A stretch of DNA of 64,000 nucleotides. It comes from Chrysomallon squamiferum (taxonomy: Eukaryota > Animalia > Mollusca). Shown in pieces: positions 1 through 62,616 of this stretch (within the stretch, counting starts at the first letter, position 1; each line of letters opens with the position of its first letter). Both the position numbers and the translations under genes were made by a program. The notes beneath the pieces were generated by a model. The model worked only from the letters and a program-made list of their open reading frames with translations, did not search any database and had not been told where the DNA came from. The DNA is taken from positions 7,440,001-7,504,000 of the forward strand of contig CM022665.1 of NCBI GenBank assembly GCA_012295275.1, written 5' to 3'.

Positions 1-55
1 TTATTTACATTGGTTTCAAGAAAACAAAAACTAGTTGTTTGTTTTATTATTTCAG

Positions 56-7886: not shown

Positions 7887-7927
<41 letters not shown>

Positions 7928-9559: not shown

Positions 9560-9612
<53 letters not shown>

Positions 9613-11304: not shown

Positions 11305-11335
<31 letters not shown>

Positions 11336-19118: not shown

Positions 19119-20746
19119 ATAAAATAGATATTGTTTTATGTCAAATCTGCAAGTATCAGTGACGTCAAACAATTGGCAGATGAGATATTTGAGTTATTTG
19201 CTATCAAGTGAATTCTGCTAACAGCCAGAGAGCAGATTGTCAGCATGTACATCAGCAGGAAAAAATAAGAGCAATAAGTTAGATATTTTTATTAGGTATA
19301 ACATTTTTTATGAATAGCTAAATTTCAATTATTTTTATTTTCATGAATCAGGAAATTAAAAATCATTGGATCTGAAAACCAAGAAATAAATAAGTGCAAC
19401 CAAATATGGAAATAAAGTGTTTTAGGTTTGGGATGTTGCCAGTGGGTATGGCTCTTGTGGTTGCAATGAAAGGAAAACACCAATTCACTCATCTATACAC
19501 TATAAAGTAGAATATATTTTTAAAACAATGTTCCCTCCAGGATTTCACTGAAATGCGCTTAACTAAACGTTGCTTAGCACTATACTGACTGATGGTGACT
19601 TTAGTTGCCCGAATAGGAGTATGAATTTTAAGAAAAATGTCAGGACCACATAAACTTTGGTTTTCACTGGAAGTCCTCGAGCAGTACTTTTGTTATTGTT
19701 ATTTTATCAAAATAACATTAACATGCTTAAAATAATTGTGCATGCATCTTACAACAAACATAATCATGAAGTTCATTTACTCAGTTTTTGTCACTTTCCA
19801 GTTCTTGTATTCATATTTCATATTTCTTGGGTGCATTTTCTGTCCAGGTTTTCTTACTAAGACATTGTCACATTCAGTTTGTCAGCAAGGGTCAAAGGCA
19901 GATGTCCTTTTGAATATACTGTTTTTTGGATGTATCAATTGTATTTGTGTCATCAGTACCTGACAGGGTGTTAAACAGATCATATCTTCTGAATGGCACA
20001 CCTAATCTAATGACAGAAATAATATTTATTAACAGTGTGGTCCTTCTGATGATGAACCACATTCTCATGTGGCCATGAAAAAAAGGTTGCCCATGCCTGG
20101 TCTGTAAAATATAAAAAGAATCAGCAGGCATTTAAATGCAGCAGAAATCCAAAATAACATTCTACTTAAGCAAATTTAAATGGTTTGTACCATTCCATAA
20201 AACCAATTAAAACAAGGAGAAACAACAGTACTGATGAGGGTTTTTTTCCCCTTTATTTTTGTTGGTTTTTTTTGTAGAGATAAAGTTGTGGAACATAAAC
20301 CCAGTAGGAACCAGCAGAGATCACTGTGGCTGCTGCATGGAGTTACAATGCAATGACTTGAATTGATTTTTGTAGATGGCCATCTCTACATAACAGTGTA
20401 TGCTATCTCTTTCCTCATGCCACAAAAACACCCATGATCATCTGCTTGAACTTGATTATTATGTTGTCTGCATGTTGCAGATTAAAAATAGTTAACTAAT
20501 CAAAGCTGATATTCTTCATTTCTTGTTCATAATTCCTTTGTGAAATTTTTCACTTAATTATCACCTTCAAAAGATTATTAGAATGTTTAGAAATTCAGTG
20601 TTTGTAAATATTCTGTATTTTTATTTATTTTTTTATTTTATTGTATTATTATTTTTATTATTACTATTATTATTAATTTTTTTTTAATTATTTTTTAGGG
20701 GCATACAAACAAACAAATGCATTTTGTATTCAGTTATGTCTGAATT

Positions 20747-23700
20747 ATGAACTTTGCACTAGATGAAGAACATCTTAAATCAGAAACTGCAAGATTACAA
20801 ACATTCTATAACTGGCCACACTCTGCATCTCAAAACCCAGAAGTCCTTGCTAAAAATGGTTTTTATTACATTGGACCTTCAGACCGAGTGAGATGTGTAT
20901 TCTGTCGTGGCATTTTAAAAAGTTGGAGATCCTCAGATGATGTTGCTGCAGAACACAAGAAACACTTCCCTCGTTGTCCATTTGTGCTGAATCACAATGT
21001 CGATAACATTCCTTTAGACAGCGGAAGTAGAGGATTGCAGTTTTCAGAACTCTTAAACCAAAATTTTTCAGGTGAAATTTCACCTGTTCTGAAACAACCA
21101 CGATACAGGCAGTATGTAGATCGATTGAAATCATTACAAGATTTACCCAGTTATGTAGTTCAAGACAGAGAGCTTTTAGCAACAGCTGGTTTCTTTTATA
21201 CAGGTTTGTAATTTACTTGTTTGTAATTACCATGTAGTATGGTTTCTAAACTTTACTAGAAACACTGTATAGATGGAGAATAAACCAGTAACTTTTAAAA
21301 GTTACATTCCAGCTGATGATTAATTTGTATAAGATGAAAGTAAATAACACAAATAAATTAAACTGACACTCTATATCTGGAGTAAATAAAAATGATAATT
21401 AGTACTAAGATCATCTTAAAGATGATATTTTTCTTCTGTAATTAATTTATGTTACAGGTATTTCTCTGGGCATATATAATTTTGTTTGTAATATTCAGTA
21501 CATAAATAATTATTTATGATTTTGAGAATAATCTTTTTAGCATTACTTCTATATTACACTTATATATAAAAGTAAGCACTTCTGCTTATAAATGTCCTTA
21601 AATTCATTGTTTTTTGTCTTTTTTAATTTTATTAAAATAGTTTTCAATGTTGTATTGTTAGGACATGGTGATAGTGTGCGCTGTTTTGCTTGTGGAGGAA
21701 CTCTTCGCAGCTGGGAAGAGTCTGATGACCCATGGATAGAACATGCTTGCTGGTTCCCTAGATGTCCATATCTTCTTCAAGAAAAAGGACAACAGTTTGT
21801 CACTGATATTCAGAGTAATTTTGTAGCCAATATTCAAAACAGACAGGTATCTGTTTATGTTTATCTGTTTATGTTTATCTGTTTAAGAGAACCAATAACT
21901 AGTAATATGTGATATCGGGGTCAGTTGTTTATTTTACAATCTAAACCTCCTTGCCCTCCAAAACAAAACAAATAAATAAATAAATAATGATAATAATAAT
22001 AATAATAATAATAATATTAATAAATTAAAAAAATACAAAAATACAAAAATACAAAAATTTTCATCACCCAGATGCCACCATTACATCATAGTCTGTGCAG
22101 TAATGTTTGAGGATTAGATATTTGTAGCTGGCATGTGCAAAACTATGTGAGTTGTTGAACACTGATAATTTGTTTTTAACTCAGAACAGTTACTCTGATT
22201 CATTTGAATTAAATTTGGATGCAGCTGTGTAAATGAAACAGAAAAGCGCAGTTCAAGAGATGTATCCGTCATTAAAAAAGGACCTCATTTCTTTGGCATA
22301 AAATAAAAATGAGGTGAATTACATTTTGATGTGTTTTAGCATAGAAGTGCACAATATGAGAATATATTTAAAATTATAGTATTCTTTGTTATTTATCCTG
22401 ACATTTTACAACGTACAAATAATTAAATAAAAAAAGAATGTTATTTAAATCTATGCTGAAAATGACATGTACATGTTGAAAATAATAAATTCTTTCACAT
22501 TTTAATTATCTGAGTTATTTTTGTTTTTATGTTAGCCTGTTCAGTCCCCTCAAAGAGAAAGTCCTCAGCCAGTGAGAAGTGAGTATGAACATCATACTGA
22601 TATTAATAATTTAATGTATTTTCAGATGCATACCAAAAAATAAACAAAGAAAAAAACAAAACAAAATGGAACATCCACTCTTCATTTGATCTAGTACAGT
22701 AGTAAACATTTCAGTTAAACTCTGTTGGTTTAGGTTCTGGCTTCCTTTGCACATTTGTGGGTGTGTGTGGGGGTATGTGTGTGAGTGTGTGTGTGTGTTT
22801 TTACATGTATATATATTAAGAGAGAGACAGACAGATCCCTAAATTTTTAATCTAGAAAATTTGAATTTAAATGCATTTTTACAAAGAGGTAAATAAAAAT
22901 CAGTTTGTATAACTACATTTTCTAAATTGTGTTTTCCTAATTTTAGGACAGCGTAACAACAGACATTTACTTCCATACATTCAAGCTGTGGTTGATATGG
23001 GTTATGCTTCTGATTTGGTGTTACAAGTCCTGCAGAAAGAGCAAAAGAAAGGTATGCACTTGTATCATATACACAACCCAATTAAGACAGTTACAAGACT
23101 AAAACAGTATTTACTTACTGTTATATTTTAAGTGTACTAACTGCATAAAAAAAATATGGTAACTGTTTTGTATGTGAAAACACAGATGTGTCATCAGGCA
23201 GTTTTAAACACTGATATGTCCTTGAGCTATGTTCCTTTACAAGGCAGGGTATATATAAACAGAAAAAAGTTCTTGTAACTGAGAGTATTGTTAAGATGTG
23301 TCTGGCTTATCTTGATTTTATCAGATTATTTTCTTAGAATTTATACCTGTTTTAATCAAAATCTTATTTAATGAATTTGTTACAGGGCATATTATTTTGA
23401 AAGCACTGGACTACTTAGCAGATCAGTTTCTGTACTTTCTCCGTTTTCTCCTGCTCTTGTATATTGCTGACTCATTGTTTTCAGGAAATAACATTACAAC
23501 ATCTGAAGCTTTGTTGACTGCTGTTGAAGAACATATTGCACAGGCTCAAAATTCAAACAGTCCATTACTGGAAAATAAAGGTAAATGCTGAATTAATCCT
23601 TTTAGTGTTAGGTGTGAAAACTTCTTTTTGTTATTGTTTTTAATTATACACGTTAATTAGACTCTTTAATGGAACGAATCTTCAGCAGGATATTATAATA

Positions 23701-24007
23701 AAGAGTTTTAATTTATGATTTAGTGTGATTGTAGGAAACAAAATTATTAATATAATCATGTATATTTATGTGAGACACTGGTTGATTATTTAATTCTGTT
23801 GCTACAGTTACAGTATCCAATCCAGAGGACCCAGGTGAGATGAGTGATGATAGAATTTTGTGTAAAATCTGTATGAACAGAGAGGTTGAAGTAACATTTC
23901 TGCCTTGTGGTCACCTGGTGTGTTGTGAACCCTGCTCCAGGCTGGTTAAGGAATGTCCAGTCTGCAGAAATACGATAAAAGGTACAATCCGCACGTATCT
24001 AGCATGA
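20747..24007 (+). CDS. Inhibitor of apoptosis protein (BIR-BIR-UBA-RING; BIRC2/3/7-like), 361 aa
   Basis: Exons 20747-21203, 21662-21846, 22536-22578, 22947-23051, 23485-23580, 23808-24007 (1086 nt, in frame). BIR1 RVRCVFC..EHKKHFPRC; BIR2 SVRCFAC..EHACWFPRC; UBA IQAVVDMGY; RING CKICMNREVEVTFLPCGHLVCCEPCSRLVKECPVCR..RTYLA*. Confidence 0.93.
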
Positions 24008-26221
24008 ATGAGTATTGTTGTCAGTCATAAAAATTGTCTGAACTCACATTACAGACAAAATGCTATGTGATTTTGTAACAGTCACTAACAAATTTCAAAA
24101 TAATAATGTTGGGGAAGGGCTTTTGTTTAGTCTGTTGGGATGAAATTCCAAACGTAAAAGATTATATATATTTTTTTTTAGGAATACTATAACATGTTGT
24201 GTCGAGCTATGCTTAAATTTCTTTATTGAATGTATGATAGCATTGTAGTCATTCAAATGCATTACTGTTTTAAATAAGACATTGGCATGATATCCCAGAC
24301 AATTAAAACCAATTTACTGTTAGCCAGCTAACTGCTACTTTTTCCTTAACTATTTTCTAATCAATCTGGATGATATCAGAGAAATTTTAATAAAAAAAAG
24401 TAACAAAAATCAAAATTAGGTTATGGAACTGAACTTCTGAAATAAAATAAACATCTTATTGTAAATTTGAACACATTTGCATTTGAAATTCAGTAATCTA
24501 ACATACTAATGATACTGTATATTTGTAATTTCCTCATACAAATAAATGCAGGACAGAAAAATTGTTTAAGCATAAGCTGTCTTAACATCATTTGGCTCAG
24601 GAACCTTCTGATGGTTATGGGAAGGAAGTTATAGAATCAAGTTGTTTTCACTGAAGTGGATTTATCCATCCACTAGTACAATGACTTTTGAAGTTTTCTA
24701 TTATTCCATACTTAACAATAATCTTTAAGAAGTTTGCCAGCATAGTAATAAACAAGAATAAATGTTCTATGAACAATAATCTTAATTTTTCTAGTCAGAA
24801 AGAATCTCTCTCAAACAAATCAGGTAATTTCCAGTATACTCAGCGAGTACAAAATGCAAAAACAGCATATAATATTTGGTACAGTTGGCTAATATGTTGG
24901 CCTAATTCATTCATTGTCAGTAGGATACATTGACCAACATCATTAAAAATGTTGGAATGGGGTAAGTTGAGACTTAACCATCTATTCAGATGTAACTGTG
25001 ACAGATTTTATTTTCACTGACCTGCTGATATCATGGACTCATTTTGATTGATAAAAGGCTCATCTTAACTGTTCACTCCTAGGCACCTGAAATTTAGGAA
25101 CATAAGAAAATCTCTAGGCCAGTTAGGTTCATCTGCTTTCAGCAATTTTTGGTAGGGTCAGTACATTTAATTGCTATTCCTGTTCATAGTGGAAGTTTGC
25201 ATAATCAAGTTGAGTGAACTTGTTTTGCCATTTTTCATGAATGAATGCAGGTTTTTAAAATTTTATAACTTTGAAAATTAGATTTGAGTTAATATCTGCT
25301 ATGGCAATCTAAAAATTCAGAAAACATTAAGATTATAAATATTATTGCCCCTTATTGAGATACTTTCTCCTCAGATATTTCATAAATTCTATAAACTGAT
25401 AGATGGGATGAAAATAATTCAGTGGTGGTTTTCTGAAATGAAATGACTTGAAAAAAACCCAACACATTTTAATTGTTGAAAATCTTATTGATAGTTCTCT
25501 ATCAAAAAATTCCTGGCTTAGACATTAAATCAATGCCCATATTGGGAAAAAATTATCTGTATTTCAAATCAAAGTGTTCAAATTATTATTTATAATATAT
25601 ATATCCAGTAGTTAATATGACAAACCCAGATCCTGATAGTTTTTAGTATATTAGTGCTTCATGAGGTTTAGGTTCAATAAGTCAGAATAAGCTTTTTGAC
25701 ATTGTGTATTCTAAGTTATTTTGCAGCTGTTTGTACTATAAACACAAATCTGTGACAATATGATGAATATCATCAAAAGCTTTATACAGTGCCATAAATA
25801 ATACTGTATGTGAAATTATATGATTACAGTATGAGTTAAATATTATTAATTTAACTGAAATGGTAATTTTGTAATGTGTTAGTAATACTAACACATGAAA
25901 TTACTATTGATATTTTGATATAAATGAGTATTACTAGGCATATTGTATTAGTAATACTCATTTATATCTAAATATCAATTCCTTTGTTGTTGAATTATTA
26001 TTATTCAGTGTTTTTTTCATATTTCTTGTTGTGTATTTTAAAAAAATATATTTTATGTTAGATTTTTGTTTTTTCTCCTTGCTCATGATTTCATAATACG
26101 GAAGTATAAGTTTAAAAATTCTGTTGACCACCATTTTTTTTTTTATTGATGTAATGTCATCAGATACAATGCAGACCAGTTTGATCACAAATGCATACAC
26201 ACACATACACATGCAGTTACA

Positions 26222-31525: not shown

Positions 31526-34500
31526 CTATTTCTGACTATAATAAACAATGTATGATGGAAGAATGTGACTTGTGTTAAAAATAATCAACTCTTTTCCACA
31601 TGGTGAAACATGTGCGAATCGTAACCAGCCTGCAGATTGGCTCCCCTCATTACCTGTTGGCAAGTATATGCCTAGAAAAAGAAAATATACTCACATTAAA
31701 GACACATGACTGAAATAATGCTTACAAACAAAAAAGATTATCTTTTCAAAAATATATATAAATATTAAGAAATGATTTCAGGTAGCCATGTAATATGTTT
31801 TTAAAACTTTTATTTACATGTTACAGACTGGAACCCAATTAAAACATTGCTTCTCTAACTCACTTGTGTGCAAGTATGAGGGATAAAAAATATTTTCTAG
31901 TTTTAAAATTAATAAATATAATTTGAAAGAAAAATATATATGTCAACATGATTTTGGTTTTAGGTTACTTGTTTTGTTTATTTAATATTTTTTTATATAT
32001 ATATATTGACTGAAAATGAAATATATTAACTATCAATAACTTTATGTATATACCATCCCTAAACCATGTTTTCATAGTCAAAAGAGATTAATGTTTTAAT
32101 GATCACTCAGTGAAAGCACAGTTATTTAAGAGATACATTGGATATCAGTGATTCATACTTTCACTAGTAAATTTATGTCCCATCTTGAAGGGTAGGATGA
32201 CATATGTAATACCTACCGTATATACTTGTGTACAAGGCGACCTTATGTATAAGTCGATGTGTATTTTAAGACCAAAAATTGCGTCATTTTAGGTATTACT
32301 TGTGTATAAGTCGACTGTAGATTCCAGGCACCATCACTATTTTTAGACCAGTGTGACAGTGCCATGAAGGCCTACATTGTACGCCTACTGTAACATAACT
32401 TGCACAAGCTGTAACTTGCACGTGCAATTCAAAGTAAGATAATTTCGGAACCTCAGGAATATTTTTTTCTATCGAAACTCTGCTACAAGACACGCCCCCG
32501 ATCCTATTCCTAGCGCGCTAATTGGCCGAGGCTTCGCGCACTTGGCAACCGACTAGAATAACAAATATGGCAAGAAGTTGAACTGATTTTTGTTGCAGAA
32601 CGTTTATAGAAATTTAGTTTGTTTTCAATTTGTCGGTAGTGGATATTAATGACGATTGCAATATTATTTCACCAAATTCTTTACAATTACACAAGTGAGT
32701 TTTGTTTATGAAATTAGGACCAATATTTAGTGCAGTTTGGCAGAGAAGTCTGCATTCCTAGATCATTGCAAGACGCCGTAAGGCATAACGCCGTACTGAC
32801 GGTTTTCTCGCTTTAAAATGTATTTTTATGTCATTAAACGGAAGAATATCATGTTTTACATTCATATTTGGTTTTGTTATTTAATTTTTCAAAACATTTT
32901 ATACGATAAAATTATATTTTTGAAAAGCTGAAAGACCGCGATTATTTTAGATGCATCCAGTAGCAAAAAATAGTCAAAATGGCGACTCTTCAGCAACAGC
33001 TACAAAAGCATTACCTATGTAAAAGTCGACCCCCAAAATATTACCTTAATATAGTCTCCCAAAAATTCGACTTATACACAAGTATATACGGTAACTGATA
33101 TATGCTGTAAAAAACTCGTACTAAAAACTGAGTATGTCAAGTGTAAATTTGTATTTATCAAATGACTAAAAATGCTAATATTAATAATTAAGGTTGATTT
33201 TTTTAAAGTGAAAGAATTCAAAGCATAATATAAGGAATATCTAAAGAATGTGAACAATTAACTTTTGATACATTTGCCGTGATTTTTAACTCTGTTACAG
33301 TCACTGTTTCCATAATACTGATAGGTGGTAAACATTTATCACTTTTCAGCTCATTAATCTGTGTAAAACCTTTTCAGCTGGGTAGCTATGCCTACTAATA
33401 AAACTAATATAGCATGTAATTGTAGAAATTGTCCTTTGTCTATGAGAAAAAACAAAAAACATTTAACTATCTAACTGGAGGGTAGTTATGTCGAGCACGA
33501 TTTGGTTTCTAAGATTTTGTTAGCAAAGGTTAAATCTGGCAAACTAATGTCACAGTGTAGTGCTGAAGTTGAATTCCTTATGGAATAATATATTACTTTC
33601 AAAGATGAAAACTTGAATTCAGAGAAAATCAAAATATAATCTGTAAATAAACTGAAGAAGATATCAATTAAAAACACTGATAATGTTAACATCTGCCTAC
33701 ATCAGCTAAAGAAAATCAGTAAAGAACATATGTTAACAACAGAAAGAGATTTCATCTTTAAATTTCCCAAACATACTCATCAGTGCAGTATTTACATTAA
33801 TAGGAAATGCAAGCAGATGAACAAAATGAGGTGGTTTTATTTACTAAACGTCAGTAAAAATGGAAATATGCCATTACCACAGAGAAATAATCAGGAAACA
33901 GGTACAAACCTTTCCTTGTAAAATTTGACAAAGCATGATTGTAGTTGACCCATTTATGTAAGCCATAGAATATTCTGGATATTCACTGAAATACACACCA
34001 GCACCATAGTAACCACTGTCTGTCTTAGCTTGGAACCCACGATCACCTGAAGACACAAACATTGATAAGTTACTAACCTTTCCAATGAGTACTTGACACA
34101 GCATTAGTTGTGTGGCACCAGAAATATAATGCATTGAATAACTTGGATATTCACTGAAGTACACCCCACTGCCATAGTTGTTCCCAGATTTCATGACAAA
34201 ACCTGGATCTCCTAAAATCAAAATGTTGGTATATTAAATATGGAACATTTTAAAAAATGTGTTTTTGTTTTATTTTATTTTTTTTTTTTTTTTTTCCCAA
34301 ATGCTGGTAATATGATGACAAAAGCAAAAAGATGGATGAAATCCAGTGTTAGTTATGGAAAGAAACTATTAGTTGAAAATACTATTAAACAACAGAATTT
34401 TTTAGTTATATATACAAACAGTCTATAATGTCGACAATGATGGTAAACTGATTTTAGCATTGTAAAGAGGTAGGTCGTATAATAAGTTTTCTGAGATAAT

Positions 34501-37500
34501 GAATACCCAATACTTGCCCAGTTGTCTTTCAGAATAACAGAAAGTATGCTGAGTTACAGACCTATTTGTTTTGATTGCCCAGTAAGCTGGTAAATATTAA
34601 TGAATAAATTAAGAAAGAAAAAAAAAAAACAGTTAAAAAAACTGAAGTATTAAAAAGTATTTTCATTGCCTGTGTTCTTGTAATTCACCTTTTCTCAAAG
34701 AATTACATGACAGATGTCTGTTTTAAAGTCATACAAAGAATTACATGACATGTCTGTTTTAAAGTCAAAGAATTACTTGATAGATGTTTGTTTTAAAGTT
34801 GTACAAAGCATTACATGTCAGATGTCTGTTATAAAATCATACAAAGAATTACATGACAGATATCTGTTTTTGAAGTTGTACAAAACGTAAGTAAAAAAAG
34901 AAGTTGAGATTAATTATAAGACCATGTAACAATTTTATTCACAAAGTTACTGGAATACAAATGCAATATCTTAAAGTTTCAAAATGCTAAAACTGTTGTA
35001 ATGAATAAAAACTTGATTTTGAATTATGTGATGGTTCTTGAATGACATGTCGCTGTGACAAAGTGGACATGAATTTATACTATCACACATCAAGTCTATG
35101 TACAAGTACTACAATCTGATAATATCAAAAATACCAACTCAAAAGCATTGTTAGTAGAGCCATTCCAACGTTGATTTTCTCAGAAGTTTTTGAAAATCAC
35201 AACAAAGAAAAAATTCATTTTCATTCACAAAATACAACGCAAACATAAAACTGTGTGTTGACGATTTATACAGATCTGATGATCAGAGACAAGATCAACT
35301 GATGGTGGTTTATCAGGTAATTTTGCAATGTGTTTGCATTAGAGTGTATTAGCCAGTCTTGGTAGTTGGGGACAGGAGGGGCACATAAAGCAAATAATAT
35401 TATGTATATTTAAATACAGATGACTCGAGCACATTTTGGGGTGGTAATCAGGTATGGCAGTATACTTGGGTGTGTGTTCAAAAGAGGTTTAACAAACATA
35501 TATAATCAAATATGCTTTTGTAGCCACCTTGATATCTTCCAACAATGCATTTTACTATATATATATAAATTTATGTCTGTCTGTGTAAGTGCATGTGTAT
35601 TAAATAAACTGGTATGATACTGACAAATGTTTTGTGTTAGTTATTCATTAAAATTAAAATTAAGTACACTAATATACCTGGAGCTAAAAATCCTCCTTCA
35701 CAGATTTTCTTAATGTTATTGGTGTTTGTTCCATGAAAAGCTAAGACTGGGTATGACATATCTTCACCTCTTGTTTTCTTCAGATTCTGCTGAGCAGCTC
35801 TATACATAATTATAAAAAAAACACAATAATGTTTTCTAAAATAAACTTGCTACTTTAAAGATACTCATGTAACAAAACAAATTTTTAATAATTTCCAGTA
35901 AGATTTTGATTTCTCTCAAATATGTTTTGAAAATGTTATCAATTAGTCTCAAAGGATCTGGGTCTTTCAATATACAAGAAAACACTTAACTGTTGAAATC
36001 CAGTTGTGTGTTTTTTGCTGGAACTGGAATTGGACCAATTTTCTCTGATGGATTAATTAATATTTTTTTTATAATGGTGAAACCAGATTGATATTTCAAC
36101 CACTAAGGAACAATATTTGTATTTATCAGTACATGTTTTCATATTGTTTATCCCAATGTTATGATTAAATCTGTTGACCAATAAAACACAGATAAGATAG
36201 AATTTTTAATTTAAAACAAATATTGTTTTACAAATACTTGTGAAACCATATTACTTGCATCTTTTGGAATGGAAATGTTCCAGATATTTTGGTAATGTTT
36301 TTGAAAAAGATATAACAAAAGTTATGCAACCTTTAAACCATTGTAATTGTGATTAATTTTTATTTTCTAGTAGAATTGATAAAACATAATGAATGATTTA
36401 TATTTTGTGAATCTTGGAGAAATAAAGAATATAAGTTATATCTACCTGAATTTCTTCATGAGAACTGGATTTACCACATATTCAACCTTGTCAACACGAT
36501 AGCTTTAAAACAAATACATTTTACAAAATGAAATGAATGAAAATATATTAGTAACAAAAATGATCCATATAATTACAATTGGACATTTATGAATATAAAG
36601 TCTTCATAAAAAAAAAAAAAAATGTATATTATAATAATAATAATAAGCAGACAGATAAATAAATAAACAATTAGAATAATGAATTTTTTTTTTTTTAAAT
36701 ATGTAAAGAAAGAAAAATACTTCATTTAACAACATGCTCAACATATTTAATTCAGACAGTATATGCATGTTTACAGATGAGAGAGGAAACCTTTAACAAC
36801 TTTATAGTCAGCTACTTTTTTCAATTAACACCAAGAAATTTTCCAACATAAACCAGTCACTAGACACATCACTGAGAAGAATGCATCTGGAGATCTGTCA
36901 CACCTTAGGTCAGTAGTCTCAAGCATTACGAAGAAAAAATAAATATTCATACTCACAAAGTGAACAGACTGAGTCCTACTTATAATTTAAGTTTATGAAT
37001 ATCATAAGATTACAATACTGACAATCCTTCATCTGAAATGCTTGGGACTGAAAGAATGTTTAAGATTTTGGGATACAAGGATACAGCCTGAGAATAGGAT
37101 CTAAGTCTAAACACAAATTCCATTTTTATTTTATATACAACTTACACAAACAGACTGCAGGATTTTGCATATATTATTTTTAATGTTTTTAATGAAATAA
37201 AGTTAGTGTATGAAAACTGTAAGATATCACCATTTCAGATTTCAGACCTTTTCAGATTCTGGAATTTGAAACAAGTGAACCTCAACATGTACCAGGAAAA
37301 AAAAGTCAGTGGTGATACATACTGAGCTGATGATTCAAGCAGTCTAAGAAACTGAGACTCTGCTGTTCTGAAATGATGTTCTTCTGCTGTGTTTTTGTGA
37401 GCTCTTTCTGCATGGAGACTAAAATAAACTGTTTTGTTTCCTGACAGAGCTTCTTTCTCTCCCTTTACCAGTTTTGACTGACCTGGTCCTTGCTGAAATA

Positions 37501-39414
37501 GTTAAAAATTAGTTGTCAAAGAATTATTCAAAAACAATAATTTTAACTGAAGTAACTTCGTTTATGTTATTTTACTATTTTACTGTAAACATTTCTAGGT
37601 ACCCAAAACATTTAATGGTAATTACCTTTTCACATCTGCTAATATTAATTTTTACATTTTTTCCACTTTGTGGATATTCCTCCATCTTCTTGAGGTCGAC
37701 TTTATATAAACGCCCCTTGGGGTCTGTCACCTCCGTGAATCTCTCTTTAGTTTGATAAGCCTTTTCAAGCTTGGCATTAATACCACGACTGAATGCCTGA
37801 CTTTCACCGTGTCTGTCAATGTAGTACCACTGAACCAGATTAGCAACAACTTTGGCTTCTTGCTTTTTATCAGCAGCTGTTTTGATCTGTAAAAGTTTTT
37901 CTGAAATCTTCTCATAAGCCTTTAATACATCCTCTCTAACACCTGTAATTTTCACTAATTTGTTCTGAGACATGGATAACTGAACTTTGCATTTCTTGGC
38001 AATTTCATCAACAGCTCTTTTCTGAAATCAGCAAAAACAAAATTTGTTATCGAAAAATTCAAGAAAATTAAAAATAGAAATGCTCCCACCCCTATAAATG
38101 CATCCAAACTGAAAAACCCAGACTGAATTAAAAAAGCAAAAACACATAAAGAAGACATTAGTCTTTCTGTCTGTTCATATGTTATACTGGGTTGAGGAAT
38201 AAGTCATTGCAGTTAAATTAAATTTAATCATTACATAGAAGAAAACTTAAGCTTAACTGATAACAAGATGTAATTTAATCAATAATGCATACTACGTTGT
38301 TATTTAACACTTCTTCCCAACAGTCAACAAGTTTTTTGATGCCTCTGGAACAAAATTTGAATCAATTATGAACCGCAATGACTTATTCCTCCACCCATTA
38401 GTTTGATCTTTAATTAATTACAATTTTTTATGACATGATGGATCTTCCAGTGTAACATCTTTTAATTCTAATATTCAAATACCCAGTGATAATTTGCAAC
38501 TCAAAAATTAACTAACTTCTTCACTGGGTAAATCACCAAAGTTTCCACACAGATTTTCTGGTAATGTTTTGTCGTCAACAATCATTTTGCATTGTTCAAT
38601 GAAAGCCTCTCTGGCTGCAGCTAAACCATGATCGCCTTCAGCATAAATAGCAATGACACATTCTTCACTCAGGGACTGTTTCCAAGAATGTGAGGATCGC
38701 TTAAGCTTTACATCTCTGCAACCTAAAAATAAAATACAAAAAAAAAAAAAAAAAATTTAAAAATATTAATAATAATAAATAGTTCTGTTGAAAATAGAGA
38801 AACATTAATAATTTATTAAGTTTTTAGTTTTTTTATGTGTTAAATAAACAAAGACAGAAGTTATGATTCTAACACAAAAATGAGTAAAATGTTTGATAAC
38901 CAAACTTTAAACGTAACAAAGAATGATTCTTTTGTTGATTGTTGTAAAAGGTAAATGAGTTTGGGATTAAATCTATTGATTTAGTGCATAGGTGAAAAAG
39001 TACAGTTTGTGTACTCAAAAAGAAATGAAAATAATAATTTATAAACTGAATCTTTGGAATCAGTGATAGTTACAACAATGAAAGCACTATTATATATATA
39101 TATATATATATAATAAAGTAAATCAGTATATTATTACAACATTGCATGACCTATTTAGCCTACAAAATCACTGCTTATATTGTCAACACTAAGTAATAAC
39201 AAAACATTTTACAGGCCAACCACCAATAAAATAAAATTGAACTTAGCTTTAGTGAACTTTACAGAATATACAATTAAAACTTGTTGAAAAATAATGTGTC
39301 AGTTTTACAGTGTACATCAGTGATATAAAGTCTGCCTCAGATATTACAATCACAGAATCAATTCTTCTTAATGAATTCAACTGGCCAGCTGAAACCTATT
39401 TCAATCTTTAACAA

Positions 39415-39445
<31 letters not shown>

Positions 39446-42400
39446 TATCTAATAAATGTCATTTGATAATTTGCTTAAACATATATATATATATAATCAA
39501 TTAACTTTTTTCTTGCCATACTATACTAATTTATTACTGAAAACAAAAGACTATTTTATTATTTTAAATGACATAAGCATTACCATGTCTGTGTCTAGAA
39601 GAATAATTTCTTTGTCCACTAAAGGCTGACTTGAAAGCAGGTATCATGTAGCCATGAAAGATTACCAGACGAATTTGTTTTAGACTGGAATACCGTTTAG
39701 AATCACTAAACTTCTTTATTGCCTTTGCTATTACATCTGCTAGCCTTTCAGCTGATCCCTTCTGACCACCTATGAGTAATTAAAACATGTATAAAGGTTG
39801 TTTTTTTTTTTAAATAACTGTTATAAAAAGACATTCAACATACTTCTTAAAGAGTCATGGTTATTTACTTTATTTTATTTTTTAACAGTCCTTTTTAAAA
39901 TTATTTTATCTTCATTGGTAATTTTCCTACCATTTATCTCTTTTGTAAAGGAGAATTTAACACAGGCTTACTAAATATTTGTGGTAATGTAAATAAAAGA
40001 TTTTACTGGAAACTTGTTAAAATGTTCACCATAATTTGTTTTTTCCCATCAGATGGTGATACCCAAACTGGAAGTGAAGTATCTGATTTGCACAATTTTA
40101 AATACTAGATTTCATATTTTTTGCAATAAGAAAACATCTAATTGCCTTCAGCAGAGAATGCTCTCTACCTATTTTGATCTGTCACACTAATACATAGGAT
40201 ACATCAACTGTCAAGTAGTTACAGTATCGTCTGTATGATTCAACTAATAAAATATGTTATACTGTTAGGCTTGTTTCGTTTTTTTTATGTGATATCAATG
40301 TTCAAACACAAAAAATAAAAGAGTATGAAAGTATTTGCAATAATTACCTGTTCCAAGAGCAGGGATAGAAAGTGAAGCGATTCCTTGCTGATCTACCAGG
40401 TTGAGACCTTTTGTCAAGATTTTAAACCAACCATCATTATTTTTCTGTGCTTTAATGTGCAGTATGTATTGGCAGTTCAAATTGCCTGCTTCTGTCAACA
40501 CAACTCCATTTGCTTTCATGTCTTCAACTAAAAAGAAAGAAATAATATGTTTTAACACAACTGTAAACACATATACTGTAACCCTTAAACAAAGATATTT
40601 TTATGAAAAAACAACAACAATTATTTCAAGAATAATGATAAAGCAATTCATTATAGATTAGTATGTTCTAATACAATTGATTAAATGCAGTTGAAAAACA
40701 AAAGCTGTAGAAACAACTGAAGAAACAGTTTTAGTATGTGTCAGATTATAAACTGTTGTGTCTATTGGAAGCACAATGAAGACAGTGATTTGTTTTCATA
40801 TTGCACTGCATTGTTTTTCATACAAAGAGATCAGACAGTCCACATTGTTATTTTAAACAAAAACAAAAATGTATTATTTTTTTTTTTTATTAACATTGCT
40901 TAGTTGATACAAATAATATTTCATTTTAATTTTATTTCTTTATTTCTCCTTATTATTATTAAAAAATGTATTTATTATGATTATTATTTTTATTGACTGC
41001 AATAATTAAATGATGAAATAAAAAAAAAAATTAAGTATTTTACTCACTGCGCTCTTCACAATAACTCTGCAGTTCTGGACCAGCTTTAGCCAGAATGGTT
41101 TTTGAAACTGCACCTGAAAACAGATACATGTTTTGTGAAGTACGTTTTGGTTAACATTCAAGACATTTAGACACTTTGTGAAAACTGTTTTATAAAGAGT
41201 GAACATAACTGACGTACAAAATAATGAGATATCTAAGTTGGTGTCGTTGGATTTATAACCCACCTATTTTGCTATTCCAAATGAAGCTCATTAACCAATT
41301 TTCAAAATTATGGATTAGATTTTGTAAGATTAAAAATAACATATATGGTTTGGTGATAACAGTAGAACCTAAACTTACTTGCTCATTTTTCTCTCTGTGT
41401 CCCTCTGGCTTTATTTTTGTGTTATAAAACTTAAGAAGCTAAACAGGATGTCTAGATATGAATCTTAATTGGAACAAAGTTAAAAAAAAAAAAATTAAAA
41501 TAATTATTGGTGCTAATTTGTAATTATCTTTATCAATCCAGCTAGCTTGCTACTTTACTTATTAACATAATTAAAATAATTAATTATAATCACCAGTGTT
41601 GAGATCTAGTGTACTGTTGGTACTGTTCACAATGCATTCAGTTTTTTCCAGAGTTATATCCCCTCGTACAATGTGCACTTTGATATTACCACACATGAAC
41701 TGATCTACAAAAACATCATCAATCATTTAAAGTGGTTTTGTATTTTTGGCTGCAGTTAGAGTATATGACTAACATATAATCATCACATGATCAATATTCA
41801 GAATTTTCATATTTTACATCATTGTTAAAAACCAGATATAAATAATGTATTACCAATATATAAAAAAAGGATAGCTAGTCAACATTCTAGCAATATAAAT
41901 TTTACTTAATACCTACCATGATTTGAGGAATGTCGTCCATTAGCTTGGGAATGTTTCACCTGCTTTGGTAAATCTTCTATCTCTGAATAACTATTTTCTT
42001 CAAAGATGTTTTTGAATGCCTGAAGAAAAGTCAATAAAATTAATACATAAATTTGACAATAATGTATAAAATAAATTTATTAACTATAAATAAGAATAAA
42101 ATTTCCTTTTTATATAATAAAACTATTTTTTGAAAGCGTATTTATTACACACTAAGCTGCTTTTTAATGTATTTACATGTAAATGAAAAAATATTTGTAT
42201 AATGAATGTTTTGGTGTAATTTCTAATAGTGACATTTACCAGTTCTTAAATCCATTTTCAATACAGATTATAAAAATCTGCTTATTTAAACATTATTTAA
42301 TAATTTCAGGCCTTTTTTATAATTATTAAATTTTGTTTTTTTTTTTTTTGATCTGCAGGTGGAATTATTGTTTTATTCCAGAAGCAAGAATTTATAAACT

Positions 42401-42867
42401 GATACCAGACTGATAAACTGTTAACATGTATTAATTTTGTCAATCTTGGAAAAAACCAGTTCAGAGTAATGCACTCTGTAAAACTGTAATTAAAAAAAAA
42501 AATTAAAAATGAGTAATAAGTACTGTAATATTCCATTCAACAATAAACTATTTTAAGAAAACAAAAATGACTATACCTGTAATACATCAGTATTCTGGGG
42601 ATAAACAACACAAATAATATTCTTCACTGTTGATGATGGATTATTCTTAAAGTGTAGTTTCACAGCTTTTTGCAGAAGAGTTGCAGCAATGTCAGCAGGG
42701 AATCCAAGAAGTCTTCCAGTTCCAAGTGGTGGGAATGCAACAGAACTGAGCTGTTCCTTAGCAACCAGATCCAAACACGAAGTTACAAACTCTCCTAAGA
42801 TCTACAGCAATATTAATGTAATTATAATCTCTACAAAATATAGTGTGTTTGTGCTGTGATTTCTCTG

Positions 42868-42899
<32 letters not shown>

Positions 42900-43927
42900 C
42901 ATGACTGTTTTTAAACTGACAAGAGATCAGAATATCCATCATAACACAATACAAATTTGAAATCAGTACTAAAATTTATTTCAAGTTAAAATGTATTTGT
43001 GAAAAAACTGATAAAAATGTATCCATTTTTTTATAATTCACTGATTATTCTTATGTTTATTTATTCTGACAACCCTTTAATTGTCATTAAATTAACTGTA
43101 TTAATAATTACCTATTTATCTGAATTAAATAAAAGTGTTTTAGTCAGAGGTAACAAATAATTTTTAAAAAGCCACCTTTTGTGCTTGTCCTTTTTGGTCC
43201 CATTTATTCAAGCATCCAAAAAATATTTTCTGACGTGGCGGATAACTGGAGTCAACTACAGCAATATCTTCAAAATCTAAACCATTTTTATATTTCTTAT
43301 AGCATTCTCTTTGAAGTGCTTTTCCATATTTCTGAAGCAGAGATTTGGATACAGCATTGCCAGACAGATCAAAATCCTGATTAATAGGGCTTACCAGAAC
43401 ATCAACCTAAAAAACAAAACAGTGAATTTTAATTTTCAAGTTAAATTAGCAGAATTATTTATTCTATATAATACAAGTTAATATTTTTTTTAAAATAAAA
43501 TTGTTGTTTATCTAAATTGTTTTTTAAAATAAACAACAATTAACTCTGCTAAATTACATGTTCAGAATACTTGTTTTTAAATATAATAAGTTTTTGAGGA
43601 ATCTCAGTTGTTAAAGAACAGAATGACTAAAATCATCATTATAAGAAATTATAAAGAACATTAACAGCTGATGACAATTAGCTTATTTTTAAAAATAAAT
43701 GAAGTTCTTGAATATAATTCATATCAGATGAATTTTTCTGAGACTATTTTATAAAATTAATTCAAATTAAAACATCACATCAAATAATGCTGATCAACTA
43801 AACTGTAAAAATTTAACCTAATTGGAAAATGCAATATGGTTACGGCTTCATCTTTCTGATTTGTTTTATTTATTTGCTTATTTATTAGACTTTGATGTTT
43901 TCTTTTCAACAAGCTACTCTTTTCTTT

Positions 43928-43966
<39 letters not shown>

Positions 43967-45139
43967 ATTTTCACATTACAATTTAAGTCAGTATAGAATA
44001 TTGCATCAATATTATATTTATGTTGTGTATTAAAGCTTTATTTTTGTTTATTAACTTGTTAATACCTCCTGATCAGCAAGGTCTCCCTGAACTATTTCAA
44101 CTACATCCTGCAGTTGTTCAGAAGAGTGATGCAGACCTTCAGTATCTGAATCATTTCCTGAAGTGAAAATATGAAGAATAATGTTTCTTTTTCACTAATG
44201 CATAAAAATACACTGACACATACTTGCTATTTCAGATAACATAATATAAAATATTGTGGCTAAATCAGTAAATGAAACAATGGAATATGAGAAAAGTGAC
44301 ATCAAAAAATGGAATTTTAACAAACATCACATGAAATGTAATCAGCTGTACTGATATGTTCAGGGACCAGTTTGTACACTTTTTATCTCAACAATAACAT
44401 AAAATACTATTTAGACTACAAACCTGTCAGCAGAAAGATTATGAGGTTTCTATGCACTGATTAAAAATTTTAAAATCATTATTTGAAAATAAAAAAAATA
44501 ATAAATGTATTTAAATGTAGCACTGAAACCAACCTGTGTCATCATCATCAGTAGAATCAGAATTCCCATCTAAGATATTTTCATCTAACACATCAACAAA
44601 TGCTTTGACAGTTTTCTTGTTGCTGTCACAAAAACAAACTTCTCTCAGTGTTTCTTCATTCTGATCTTCATCCCTGAATTCCTGCAAAGCTGTCACAATG
44701 ACTTTCACTGCTTTGTTTGGTGGGTAGCCAAATATTCCTGAACTCAAAGCAGGAATTGCAAGTGATGTAAAATGCTGCTTGTTTGCTTCTTTGAGTATAT
44801 TCACCACAGTGTTTTCCAGGTCTTTATCTTCAGAGTTGTTACCATCTTGCCATCTTGGTCCTACGGCATGAATAACAGCTTTGCAAGGCAACTGACCAGC
44901 AGTGGAAGTATAAACATCACTGTCAGACAATGGTCCATTTTCACTTATGTATTGTTCACATTGGTTTTGAATTTCTGCACCACCTAGAACAGAAAAATAA
45001 AATATCAGATAACTATGAGAAAAAAGTATGCAGTAAAAATGTATTTTGCTTATCAGTAAATGTAACTGCATTTATTTATCAAATAGCAAATCTGACATAC
45101 TTCTGATTTCAATTTTATATGTATACTGATATTAATATA

Positions 45140-45202: not shown

Positions 45203-48200
45203 CCAGCATTATATTTCGTGCAATAAACATTTAAGAAACACATTTTTAATTTAATATATTATCATTTGGGAAATTATTTTTAAAATAATTGATATCAAAT
45301 CAAAATCAGGCTGGTTCTCAATCACAAAAAATTATGAAATGCATACTTTGCACATTACATACATACTTACAAACCTATACACCTGTCTACCCATCTACAT
45401 ACATATACATATATTATTTGCACACAACTACACACACACACAAATACATACATTCACACATATACAAACAGTACATATATAATTACATACATACATACAG
45501 AAATATACAAAAAAAACCTCAGAAAACAAGCATACACACACAGATATATGCATACACACTTACAAACATATTCATACCTATACCTACTCTATACATCATA
45601 TATACATCCTCAGATTTAAAAAGAAGTCAAAATTTTATGTAAAACCTTTCTGAACAATGTCACTGGCAATTCCTCCAGCATGATCCAGATTAACATTGGC
45701 TGCATTAACAATAGCATCCACTTCCTGAGTTGTGATATTTCCATGACAGACTCGCACAGTCTTATTTCCAATTGACCAGGTTTTCTTCATATTTTCAGTT
45801 GAATCTGTATTTTCAGCAAATTCAGTTTCTGGCACTATAATACATTTCTTCTTCTTTTCAACAAGCATTATAGCATCTTTTCCACATTCCTGAGTTAAAA
45901 GTTCTTTTAGTCCTGGCTGTTTTATCTTATATGTTTTACTGCTTACTTGGGATTCTAGTTTCCTAAGCTCATCGTCAGCTTTCTTAATTCCAGATGCTGT
46001 TCCAGAAATATACAAATCCTTATGCCCAAAAGAAATTTTTACTTTTTCCTCATACAAGTTATCTGCAATTGAATGTATTTTGTCTTGTTTGTGTTCCTTG
46101 AAATATTTATAAATTGGTTTAGGCAAGGAAAAGGTTTCCTTTTTAAAATGCTTCATGCTGAAGTAATCATTAATTTCAGTTTTAATATCATCTGCAATAT
46201 CTTTTGTTGCAACGAGAGTAATTATGCCATTTTCTGATTCATCCATTAGTACTTTTCCTGCATATGTATCTCTCAGTGACTTATTCAGTTTGATCCACTC
46301 AGGTAAGCCAGAAAAATCACCTGGCACACGAATAGTTTTTTCAACAATGCTTTCTTCGATTACGTCTTGTGCTTTTTTTAAAACTTCATTATCTAAAGCA
46401 TACACTGTCACCACATGTTCTTTAAAGTCAGCACAGCAATCCATCTTAGCTAGAATGTCCTCCAAATATGTTTGTGTTTCCTTTTCTTCTAACAGACTCA
46501 AATATTTCTTTTCCAAATTTACATCAGCCCTTAGGAAGCCGTCCAGATGTGTATGTACTTTCAGTTTTGCATCAGTGATGTCTGACCGATGACCTTCAAA
46601 TTCTATTGTGTTCTGCTTGCAGTCATATCTGATTTTTAAATTGGGAAAGTCTCTCCTAAGTCTATGTTCATATTTTGATGAAAACAGCAACTTCATCTGA
46701 TGTGCCTTGAGTTCCACAACATCTTTCTGAGTGAGATTTTTCACAAAGGTCTGAATTTTGTCCAAAATTGTTTGTACTGCTTCCATTTCCCCAACAATGA
46801 TCAAATCATTTTTCATTTTAAACACATTAACTTTTTGATTCAGTTCCTGAAGAGTCATCTTCAGTTCTTTGTTGATTTGTGGATGAAGACTTGATTCTGT
46901 TGAAACACTTCTGCTAATTAGTCCATTTTTCTTAATGAAATCAAGAATCAGAGTGTTTGCATGTTTTATGAATGCTTCACTGTTTTCAGATGTCTCACAT
47001 TCAACAAAAGGACGTACCTTTGTTCCTTCCATTGTTTCTACAACCAGTTTAGCATTTATTTGTTGCAATTCTTCCAGTAATTTTTTGTAATATTCCTCAC
47101 TCCTTTGAAGAAATTTTAGGATATAGTAGTCAATGTCGACTGGAAATTTCTGTTTCATTTTAGTATCATTGTGAGTTCTCTGGAACTGCTGATGCAGATG
47201 AGAAGAACTAAGACAAGGGTAATATAGTTTCATCCCAATCTTTGATCCCTCTACTTTAACATTCAAAGATGGGTCACAAGCCTTTTCTGCATCTGTAACA
47301 TAGTAAAATATCACTTAGGGTAAAACATCTTTAAAATGATACAGAAAAACAAAACAGAAATATAATTCTGTTTCATCAAATTAGCAGGTTAATTTATACA
47401 TTTCATATAAACATTTTTCTTCATGTTTACAAAGTTTAAATTCACATTAGAAAATACAGAGATCTATATGCCTGAACAAAAGAAATAAAAAACATGTTTT
47501 CAGTGAAATTGTAGTCTGCCGATTTAAGAGACAAAAACATCTATGCTGTATTTGCAATCACTTTATATAATTATTCTGGACTGAAATATTGAAATTTGAA
47601 AAGACAAGACAGTATTTCACCATGTAACTGTAACAAAATTTTTTTTTTGGACAAGTTCATTGCAGCTCAGATTTGTTTTGTTAGTTCTGTTTATAAAATG
47701 TATTTACTGCATAGTTATATTCTGAGATAAACTGATACTAACAAATTTGGCATTCAATTATTTCTTTGTTTTTACTGCTTTTTCAGACTTAACCTAAACA
47801 AGTTTCATCTAAGGGTCTAACAATCTGCAATAGTCTTATACTTAAAAAAACACCTGAGTACATCATGAAATTCAGTATAATAATTTTAGTAAATAATTTG
47901 TTTTAACAAATGACCTCCAAGCTTTACATAACTCAACAGCTTAATCTAAGTCTAAATCTGGCATTGACTGTACATTAATTTAAATACAAACACCAAACAG
48001 AAACAATTAAAATATACAAAGTTAAACAACCTTTGAAATTAGAAAAAAATACAACTGCTTCTCCAGTGCTGGGGATTATATCAACTTTTTCCACATTGGC
48101 ACCAATACCACGCTTTGGATTTTCAAGAGTATATTGAACCGCATCACTGGTGACATTAACAGGCAACCCGGAAATTATCACAGATTTTGGTTTTTCAACT

Positions 48201-48751
48201 GGTGATATTCGCAGATAATTTCCTTCCACTTTTCTTTTTTGACATCCTTTTTCCAAACATTCCATATCTAAGTAAAAAAATGTATTAAAAAATGTATTCA
48301 TGTATGTATGTTGCATAGGTGTGTGTGTGTGTGTGTGTGTGTGTGAAAAGACAATGAAATAACTTTCACAAGTCATTTTACTTTTCTTTTCTTTTTTTTA
48401 TCCCCTAAATATAGGAAGAAATGATGAATAAATGATGGAAAGGATTTTAGTTGAAGTCTACGGAGCCTAATAAAACAGAAGAAGAGGGATTTTTTCATGA
48501 TGGGACAAATTGTAGCAGTCTAAAGAAAGTTCACAACTAATTTTGTTCAAATCTATAAAGCTGTTTTCATTTAATTAAAATTTAAAAGTGTAGCAGGACT
48601 TTTGAATGACCCTGTATTTTGGAACTGTCATATTATTTTTTAGCATTGAGTTTTCCTTTACAATACTGGTAATTAAGTACAACAAAAAATAACAAGCTCT
48701 TGATAATATTTATTTTATTTTATTATTAATTTTAATTTTAATATTTTATGA

Positions 48752-50895: not shown

Positions 50896-53800
50896 TTAAG
50901 TATTGAAAAGCTGAATAAGATCTATATCAAAAACTGTCTGTACATAATTTGTTGTTTTTATTTTAGTTTATTTTACTGATAAATTATTATCATTAATTTG
51001 TTTTTTTCTTGATGTTGTTGTATTTATTATATTATAATGTTTAACTTTCTTTTTTCTTTTTACATAGTATACATATACATTTATTTTAATTTAGCGTTAC
51101 TATATAGTCGGATCCAATAAGACAGAGACAAAGTTCCGGGTGTTGAAGATAGATCGAACAGAACCTCGAGAATTGATAGTCCATGATGACAAGGTTTGAA
51201 CTGATTCTTTATAAACAATATATTGTGTAAAATACATATGTAGCTCAGTGGATAGAGTGCAGGACTGAGTAATAAAAGATGTTGATCAGAATTTCAGTCA
51301 TTGTCCTAGACTGGTTCATCAGTGGTTGTTATTTGTACTTTCCTAACTTCAGAAAGATGCTCACAAGAATATCTTGCGTAGTAGTAGTGCCAGTGGTTTT
51401 GTTTCTCTCTATTGTTTAACAAGTACCATGCTTTAACACTTAATGTCTGTTACTTATAATATGTTACCCTGTCTGTGGCAAATGCATACAAATCAGATAG
51501 AATGCCCAAAATGGATGTTTTTACCTTCACTGGGTACATTTCATTTGTATAAAAAATTATTATAGTATTCCAGTTATTACTGTTATAAAAGGCTTTAAAT
51601 TTCTCACTCAAAAGCAACATTTATTTGTCATGTATCTCTACAAGTAAATAAATTGTAAAATAGCATTTTGTGTAAAACCAGTTTTAAAATGTTGAAAATA
51701 AATATTTCAGGTAGAGTACAGTAAAACTGAAATCAGGAATATACTGACTATGATTAATGTTGGGAACCAGGCACATCAGTCACAAAGAGGAAGTTCAGGT
51801 CTTTCCAAGACAGTATCAGCATTTGGCATTGTGGGTAGGACTTAAAATTGTTTTCACTGCTACACTTGGTCAAATGATGATTATTATAAAATATTTTAAT
51901 GCCCTTTCAGTTGGTAATTTAGTAATTTGGTCTGATGTATAGCATTTAGGATAGTTAGTCACCTGACTTTCAAACTATTACAGTAAGTTAATGCAAATTA
52001 ACAGAAATATGTCATCACAGGTTAATTGAAATTACAAATGCTGAAATCATCAGTGATGAATAGATACACAATACATTAATAGTGAAACCACTGATTGTAA
52101 ATGTATTATTTTAACTCACATGTTTGAATAATTCAGTCTTCATTTGAAACAGTTGATTATTATTCACCAGTATTCCTAATATTAAATTAATTTGAATATA
52201 TATATTTTCAGCAAAAGAAGTAAGCTAAAAGAATTAATGTTTCCTTTTAATTGCTGATACCAGAAGCAAGAAATTTGAATTTAAAATGTTTATCTTCTGA
52301 GAAAAAAAAGAAAAAAAGAAAAAGTAATTGACAATTAACATTAATTGGAAACAGACAATTCTGTACATCTTTAACTAGTTCCATTTTGGGTGCTTAACTA
52401 AATATTCTTAATACAGTTGCTTCATTTCATTCTGGCTTAATTTATGTAAACACAGATATGACTAAGTATGTTTATGCATATTTCTTTCTGTTTGCAGGGT
52501 TTATTAGATTTTTGGAAGGTTATTACATTATACTTATAACAAAGAGAAGAAAGGTGGCATTATTGGGTTCTCATACTATCTACAAAGTTGAGGATACCAC
52601 AATGTTGTATATCCCAAATGATACTGTAAGATACTTTCATCCAGATGAAAGCAGGTAAAGTGTCTGTTTTGTGTTCCTGAATAATAAAAAAAATTATGAT
52701 CTATAGATTCATACATGTATAATTTATTTATTGTCACAATTTTAATTTTATTTTTGGCATCTGTTTAATGATGTCATGTCTGACATTGTTATGGATCAGT
52801 GAAACTTTTATATATTCTCTTGTAACAGAAGGTGTTTAACAGTTAACAATCATTTTTAATTTCAGATATGTGAGAATGTTTCAGAATGTGGATTTGTCAA
52901 GTAATTTCTACTTCAGGTAACTGTAATTTCTTATCTTTATTAATTGAAATGAGCTTTCTGTATGAAAAGATGAAATTCTGGATTTCTTCTTATATATTTA
53001 TTTTAATTCTTTATGTGAAAGATATCAAGTGTCTGACAAAACTGAATAAATCACTGTTGTTAATGCAGATCAAAAAGCATAGAAGGCTGACGTTTAAAAG
53101 TATTATACTAAAGTTATATATAATTACTTTAAGAAAAAAAGGTACTGTTTATCCTCTTAAAACTGGATAAGAACTAGGAATTGACTCCTGCAACTACCAG
53201 CCTTAAGTCAATGTTATTCCCAGATTTAAATAAATGTAAAATGTGGATGGTTATTTCAGAAACAAAATATATATTTGTATCAGGATCAAATCAATAATGA
53301 TTGAAATTATTATTATTACTTTTATTATTATTATTATTATTATTTATTTTTGTTAACAGTTATAGCTATGACTTGACACACACTCTGCAATACAATATGA
53401 CACCCAGTGTTAATGAAACAGTGTCTGAGAAAGATGGAAATGATTTCTGGCAGAACAGTGATGAGAACAATACAGCAGACGCTGGACAAATGACAGAAGC
53501 TTCTATGGAATTACTAAACTCAGAAAATGGTCTACTGGAATTTTGTAAGAATGGCTCCCAGTCTGTTAGCCCTTCACCACTCACTCAAGCTAATAATACA
53601 AGTAAATTTTTATTTTCATATCCTTTAATTATGGTTCTCAGTACAATTTATGGAGACAAAATGATTTTTAGAACTGAAGTTTCGACTATATAAGAATGAA
53701 AATTTCAAACATTATATATAACACCAGAAATTTAGTCAGTTCATTCTTATTACTATCTTATTGTAATTAAGTTCCCCATCCTCTTGACAACACAATAAAT

Positions 53801-54080
53801 GTAATTTTTTTTTTTTTTAACTGATAGTGTTTAAAAAAAGTCTAGGCAGTTGTTTTGACTGTTAATAGTTATATTCAGGTAAACAGTTTTAGGGTAATTT
53901 TTAACTGCATTTCACATGCACTAAATCAAGGAAATAAATATTGTTCAACATCATATGTATAGTGAAGAAAAAAGAAGAGGCCTGATCCATTTTTGTTTTT
54001 ACTCGCAACTTCCACTTCTTTAGCTGGTTTCATACTCTTTCATGCTTTCCCTCACTAATTTCAAGTGAAACTGTTAAACC

Positions 54081-54132
<52 letters not shown>

Positions 54133-58698: not shown

Positions 58699-58730
<32 letters not shown>

Positions 58731-62585: not shown

Positions 62586-62616
<31 letters not shown>

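Follow-up and report, generated by a model that had tools for sequence, protein, structure and literature searches.

Tandem exons, probably mutually exclusive, may give one mollusc macro-WWE-ART enzyme two NAD-site loops

OGDH exons 4a and 4b reportedly form a mutually exclusive pair of the steric-interference kind. In this class, to which 57 of 629 human clusters belong, less than 50 nt separate the donor from the branch site (PMC5740500). Among enzymes, the mutually exclusive exons 6a and 6e of coq-2, present in molluscs and annelids too, have been shown to switch substrate and to be regulated (PMC7434440), and in ADP-ribose biology exons 6b and 6a of macroH2A1.1/1.2 are an either-or pair (PMC5861047). 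The oyster alternative oxidase has a duplicated exon 10 (PMC5589949), and in myosin heavy chain exon clusters have been traded against gene copies (PMC3912159). The gene described here resembles the oxidase as a mollusc enzyme with variants from a duplicated exon, and myosin heavy chain in the trade between exon cluster and gene copy; as far as the two cited accounts go, the oxidase exon is terminal, myosin is a motor protein and neither has an ART domain. Our literature searches and the supplements of one human catalogue yielded no PARP whose catalytic exons alternate; other papers' supplements and subscription journals may contain such a case. PARP, TNKS, TIPARP and ZC3HAV1 had no entry in ten supplement files of PMC5740500, in which the controls H2AFY and OGDH were found and KHK was not.

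We analysed a 64,000-nt window of the Chrysomallon squamiferum assembly (contig CM022665.1), in which all exons given here lie on the minus strand. The gene comprises an RRM exon and a large KH-repeat exon of PARP14-like type (approximately 45638..48397; Pfam RRM_PARP14_3 and KH_PARP14_3), several exons for three macrodomains (approximately 39567..45071; Pfam Macro, and tblastn with abalone, limpet and mussel proteins), a constant exon upstream of the WWE exon (38517..38722), a KH-like plus WWE exon (37626..38021; Pfam WWE, E 9e-9), a constant exon at the start of the ART region (37323..37492), a 57-nt constant ART-domain exon (36446..36502), an upstream constant exon with the triad His (FHGT) and the first D-loop residues (35678..35799), the A/B pair, and a terminal coding exon that supplies the triad Glu (ELIIF; 31526..31671). 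RNA joints mark the four exons from 38722 to 36446, and the last two of these are also open in frame. The order of RRM, KH, three macrodomains, WWE and ART is that of PARP14/ARTD8. The neighbours on the + strand, at about 1-14700, 20740-24010 and 51700-63600, are by their translations presumably NEK9-like (kinase plus RCC1-like repeats), an IAP (BIR and RING) and FIG4. Intronic repeats, deeply covered by RNA contigs and rich in loose ends, lie at 32050-33100, 34695-35350 and 38180-38360; they include a 38/70-nt tandem array (34695-34870), and the inverted arms 32214-32247/33060-33093 and 38185-38214/38371-38400 are possibly small DNA transposons.

The first-pass annotation placed the catalytic domain in the PARP14 family, which does not hold: the triad is H-Y-E here, as against H-Y-L in human PARP14/ARTD8 (PMC9189837), and in its ART region the gene resembles BRCT-PBZ-PARP proteins far more closely. 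The nearest relatives of this region are BRCT-PBZ-PARP proteins from molluscs to dictyostelids, and an abalone relative (P0004) is 42-53% identical to PBZ/BRCT-PARP proteins, compared with an E of 1.3e-5 to the human PARP14 ART; human PARP14 was left out of the trees described below. Given the H-Y-E triad and the BRCT-PBZ-PARP-like ART, the name 'PARP14-like' fits the scaffold only. The locus is an unnamed mollusc PARP type in which a PARP14-like scaffold carries another ART subfamily; databases say PARP14-like. Two gastropod RRM-macro-WWE-ART proteins of the H-Y-E subfamily (P0113, 2896 aa; P0115, 2383 aa) are labelled PARP14-like or hypothetical. Other matches, such as P0081, P0083 and P0131, are long proteins with two tandem PARP-like domains, and P0081 and P0083 have helicase-type Pfam numbers besides. 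A PF00644 match and the PARP fold, the latter from a model of the mussel relative P0015, identify the domain as an ARTD (PARP-type) catalytic domain. This model (mean pLDDT 67.5) matches PARP12, PARP13 and tankyrase at E ~1e-11; in it, the exon spans loop, strand, helix and strand, and the varying residues (303-308) form a low-confidence loop before the GVYF strand.

Within the PARP NAD site, no part is less conserved than the donor loop, or D-loop. Published proposals give it a hand in activity, including whether the output is mono or poly (PMC9189837), and in inhibitor binding (PMC7948648); an H-Y-E triad alone does not imply polymer synthesis (PMC9189837). The first reading of the sequence took the varying segment to be this loop, and the alignment to the tankyrase D-loop agrees. 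When family member P0007 was aligned with tankyrase-1, the His, D-loop, Tyr and Glu were in register; the P0007 Glu aligned with the tankyrase Glu, and ELIIF stands at that place in the window. The varying loop aligns to tankyrase-1 residues of about 1199-1209 (mapped by counting from ER), and the D-loop base and glycine-rich part have been put at 1199-1211 (PMC7948648). The further idea that the catalytic strand is swapped with the loop must be dropped: A and B have one and the same triad-Tyr strand (GVYF) and differ in the loop only. Constant exons encode the catalytic His and Glu, and His, Tyr and Glu are the same in either form.

Exon A (34078..34211, 134 nt) and exon B (33910..34046, 137 nt) each encode one version of this segment. 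Exon A encodes a short D-loop type with the motif MKSGNNYG, followed by the triad-Tyr strand, helix and next strand, and its half gives a Pfam PARP match above the cut-off (E 4e-8). Exon B has a D-loop type of ancestral length with the motif KTDSGYYG; its loop has retained the length usual in the subfamily as well as the TD-x-G-aromatic motif. The A loop is shorter by one residue and lacks an acidic residue in the stretch that contains Asp in B. From these sequences, the loop difference likely alters how NAD or the acceptor is handled. Re-reading the translation bore out the description of A and B as tandem homologous exons with the same phase (1 to 0), intact splice sites and no stops; the borders are TTTTAG|GA...AAG|GTTAGT for A and TTCAG|GT...AAG|GTTTGT for B. 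Of 45 aligned residues the two have 29 in common (in the core, 24 of 33), and the longest word common to their genomic copies is 15 nt.

The spacer between the exons (34047..34077) is 31 nt long, runs from GT to AG and reads as originally quoted, with TAAC at nt 6-9; a further branch-like word, CTTAT, lies at nt 9-13. As the first-pass annotation had it, an A-to-B splice shifts the frame, and we compute a stop 44 nt ahead of the last junction. What that annotation missed is that the spacer has no stop and keeps the frame, so that A, spacer and B form a single open frame; about 16% of random intron pieces would be expected to do so by chance. Pairing of the spacer with the flanking introns as a docking site was no better than in shuffled sequences, 4 of 15 of which reached the observed 11 bp on each side. 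Repeat finders run on the window returned nothing explanatory besides the exon pair. The worry that the duplication is an assembly artefact is countered by a 1243-nt contig (depth 59) from run X5 that crosses B, spacer and A with two differences from the window; a short-read contig over both copies argues against mis-assembly, with the proviso that X5 may be the assembly's own source.

The evidence on splicing comes from four RNA runs of a single study (X1-X4), in the form of assembled contigs that carry no levels and no tissues; X5 is a fifth run of unstated kind. All four predicted junctions, 35678>34211, 35678>34046, 34078>31671 and 33910>31671, were present in the RNA contigs. A 5234-nt contig from X3 joins the upstream exon, the whole of A and the terminal exon (35678 to A to 31671). 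X2 supplied two contigs, one linking the upstream exon to B and the other, with a 30-nt overlap, linking B to the terminal exon, so that the whole-B form consists of two overlapping low-depth contigs from one run. X4 yielded only 30 nt at the start of A and an unspliced piece of B with the downstream intron. Across the runs, the A acceptor was used in 4 of 4, the A donor was joined to the terminal exon in one (X3), the B acceptor to the upstream exon in one (X2), and the B donor to the terminal exon in two (X1 via the hybrid described below, and X2). An A-to-B splice was not among the listed joints of the four RNA runs, which being contigs do not allow absence to be inferred. Likewise, nothing pointed to spacer retention, and 34055-34135 was covered by no RNA contig of X1, X2 or X4, which is no proof that such retention is absent. 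Short joints of 24-34 nt without GT-AG ends, probably from a paralogue or repeat, were set aside.

Of the claim that one gene makes two spliced catalytic variants, the part supported is the single use of each exon with the predicted flanks; a third form complicates the claim. In this A/B hybrid, 168 nt are absent (33997..34166) and the 5' part of A is fused to the 3' part of B at a shared TGG. The resulting exon is in frame, is 134 nt long, has no GT-AG ends at its joint and combines the A loop with the second half of B. A 5234-nt contig from X1 (record 1) consists there of the first 46 nt of A followed by B from 33997, with zero differences on either side, and record 4 of X2 appears to be the same hybrid, judging by its length of 102, two mismatches and its end point. 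An artefact of the k=31 assembly graph was considered as the source and ruled out: genomic A and B share only 15 nt, which such a graph is unable to join, so hybrid molecules existed in two libraries. The breakpoint of the two hybrids falls in one 3-nt interval that lies outside the longest identical word, which favours a recombinant allele, formed by deletion of one 168-nt unit or by conversion, as the quite probable origin, rather than template switching.

In X2, the upstream exon differs at one base in the contig that joins it to B, and this difference is missing from the hybrid contig (one contig each, depth ~5); the two forms therefore look allelic, and none of the contigs from the four runs showed both forms from a single haplotype. 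The listed variant sites in exon A, 34177 (X3), 34178 (X5) and 34130 (X5), all change the amino acid (codons read by hand). X3 has two differences in A, of which 34177 is the listed one. Positions 34177 and 34178 belong to one loop codon, which reads as Asn, Lys or Ser, and two of the variant residues in exon A equal the abalone residue. The terminal exon holds a frame break at 31610..31612, ahead of the catalytic Glu, where the assembly has 2 nt extra. The first-pass annotation overlooked this break; the 2 nt, at ~31610, are missing from the RNA contigs of X1 and X3, which means that the gene is intact in expressed alleles, and the break is either an assembly error or a private null allele. 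In the assembly, skipping A and B together restores the frame of the last strand, probably by coincidence.

Neutral decay of one exon was not borne out. Over the 33 codons of the core, A and B differ with a dS of ~1.6 and a dN of 0.26, a ratio of 0.16, and synonymous sites of the loop are saturated. Such a ratio at an old split indicates purifying selection on both exons, neither of which has decayed. On these figures, the absence of decay would be hard to explain unless both exons are used from the same haplotype.

Relatives bear out part of the expectation that they conserve the pair: both loop types are present, and among the proteins retrieved none has A and B in tandem. The A-type loop occurs in Haliotis rubra XP_046570875 and in P0106, with a short A-like loop in Patella caerulea KAK6168972, and the B-type loop occurs in H. 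rubra XP_046570910 and P0089 (36 of 46 residues identical). No tandem A+B was seen among 43, 17 and 119 matches, which as proteins are a weak guide, and two H. rubra isoforms of the A-type gene had zero substitutions over 1023 aligned residues. A metagenome scan reduced 102 pattern matches to one locus with no exon pair, an intronless BRCT-WWE-PBZ-PARP gene; this dictyostelid-like open frame lies at L001:118-2421 on a JGI metagenome contig.

In a tree of the exon (22 of 38 rows, 46 columns, with 16 redundant family members excluded), A grouped with XP_046570875 and P0106 at 97/93 and then with Patella at 97/85, and B with XP_046570910 and P0089 at 88/91; an (A,B) clade was not rejected by the AU test (p 0.18). 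In a tree built without the exon, the two abalone genes were sisters (82/89), and placing the window gene as sister to either of them was not rejected (p 0.16 and 0.12). The window, abalone and limpet genes formed one clade (89/98; 100/100 against three outgroup rows); the constant-ART tree did not resolve the branching inside the gastropod clade. The partner of A is one abalone gene and that of B, with weaker support, a second paralogue, so the loop types are old. The pair itself is likely older than the divergence from the abalone lineage, in which the loop types sit in two paralogous genes.

We think it probable that A and B are mutually exclusive exons that give one macro-WWE-ART enzyme two NAD-site loops. 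The 31-nt spacer would be too short for the spliceosome to remove, and for this reason the donor of A and the branch site of B would exclude each other, leaving either A or B in each mRNA. The branch nucleotide itself is predicted, and the donor-to-branch distance is under 50 nt wherever it lies, the whole spacer being 31 nt. The frameshift of a forced A+B splice, with its truncated protein, would act as a backup to steric exclusion, and the hybrid exon would be a segregating recombinant allele that adds a third loop version.

The RNA contigs also suit a different account, in which genotype sets exon choice: A-using, B-using and hybrid alleles would make one form each, and the loop variety would be allelic polymorphism. 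X1 showed only the hybrid and X3 only A, B and the hybrid were on different upstream haplotypes in X2, and exon A carries amino-acid-changing differences (34177, 34178 and 34130). We nevertheless regard this account as unlikely, because two haplotypes retain both exons and all four splice sites despite near-saturated synonymous divergence, whereas an exon unused on its own haplotype should decay, with little room in 31 nt for recombination to refresh it; contigs, moreover, lose minor forms. The open frame through A, spacer and B raises the further question of whether the true mRNA is an in-frame tandem repeat, from which reverse transcriptase or PCR jumps across the 168-nt repeat produced the single-copy forms. 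The hybrid joint would fit, since precisely one unit of the repeat is left out there and its ends are not GT-AG. This is very improbable, however, given that the A-only and B-only joints fall exactly at GT-AG sites, that the 5234-nt contigs are joined across B in X3 and across the spacer in X1, and that a frame of this kind is open by chance in about 16% of cases. Jumps should also prefer the 15-nt identical word, but both hybrids break upstream of it, in the same 3-nt interval.

It is hardly credible that the window copy is a null allele or young pseudogene with one exon a neutral leftover. The 2-nt frame break before the catalytic Glu in the assembly and the amino-acid-changing nature of all three listed exon A variants would be expected of such a copy, but the 2 nt are absent from the X1 and X3 RNA contigs, which continue through the gene, dN/dS is 0.16, other molluscs conserve both loop types, and two variant residues match abalone. 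A last alternative concerns origin only: A and B may have originated in different paralogous genes, the arrangement that abalone shows, before one exon was moved alongside the other. In H. rubra one gene is of the A type and another of the B type, and Mytilus galloprovincialis has paralogues of 93-94% identity that differ at four of five loop residues. We consider this order of events possible but doubtful; the exon-free tree pairs the abalone genes (82/89), as fits duplication of a two-exon gene, and is statistically not decisive. The simplest reading of the trees would be that an old exon pair was spread by abalone over two genes, with the reverse order possible.

The mussel paralogues P0028, P0045 and P0050 are 93-97% identical and carry two D-loops. 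Mussel macro-ART domains group with the mussel PBZ-PARP (96/91), a grouping that suggests a separate fusion of the H-Y-E ART type to the macro scaffold in mussels. An immune role is known from vertebrate macro-PARPs and would be putative here. We offer, tentatively and as a speculation, that gastropods kept two ancient, functionally distinct donor loops on a PARP14-shaped H-Y-E enzyme, toggled here by one-gene splicing together with recombination and loop polymorphism and in abalone and mussels by gene copies, and that the loop, exposed to host-pathogen pressure, would be an exchangeable module for selecting targets or products. The loop pair and the hybrid, in an otherwise identical H-Y-E domain, provide a ready-made test of loop function.

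Among described PARPs, where the PBZ+PARP combination has been noted (PMC4245714), the BRCT-PBZ-(WWE)-PARP proteins of molluscs, lancelets, cnidarians and dictyostelids share the ART subfamily of the window gene and differ in their other N-terminal domains and in having a single copy of the segment in each protein inspected. XP_046570875, XP_046570910 and KAK6168972 are macro-WWE-ART proteins that also belong to this subfamily and carry an A-type, a B-type and a short A-like loop, respectively; unlike the window gene, the H. rubra and Patella genes, known from proteins, have one loop per gene as annotated. As for splicing, the pair resembles the steric-interference class, as described in the part of that work cited here, in that the donor lies too near the branch site and an mRNA with both exons would be out of frame, and differs in that here the entire spacer is 31 nt. 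The macroH2A1 pair, according to its cited description, alters a reader macrodomain, whereas the window pair lies in the catalytic site of a writer. The likeness to coq-2 is that duplicated internal exons remodel an enzyme core in both; within what the coq-2 report covers, the difference is that the window gene is a predicted ADP-ribosyltransferase with an added hybrid form. The splicing device itself is known and ordinary; the exon pair is real and apparently an undescribed instance of it in a PARP catalytic domain, with a hybrid that is apparently allelic and with gene-level loop variants in relatives.
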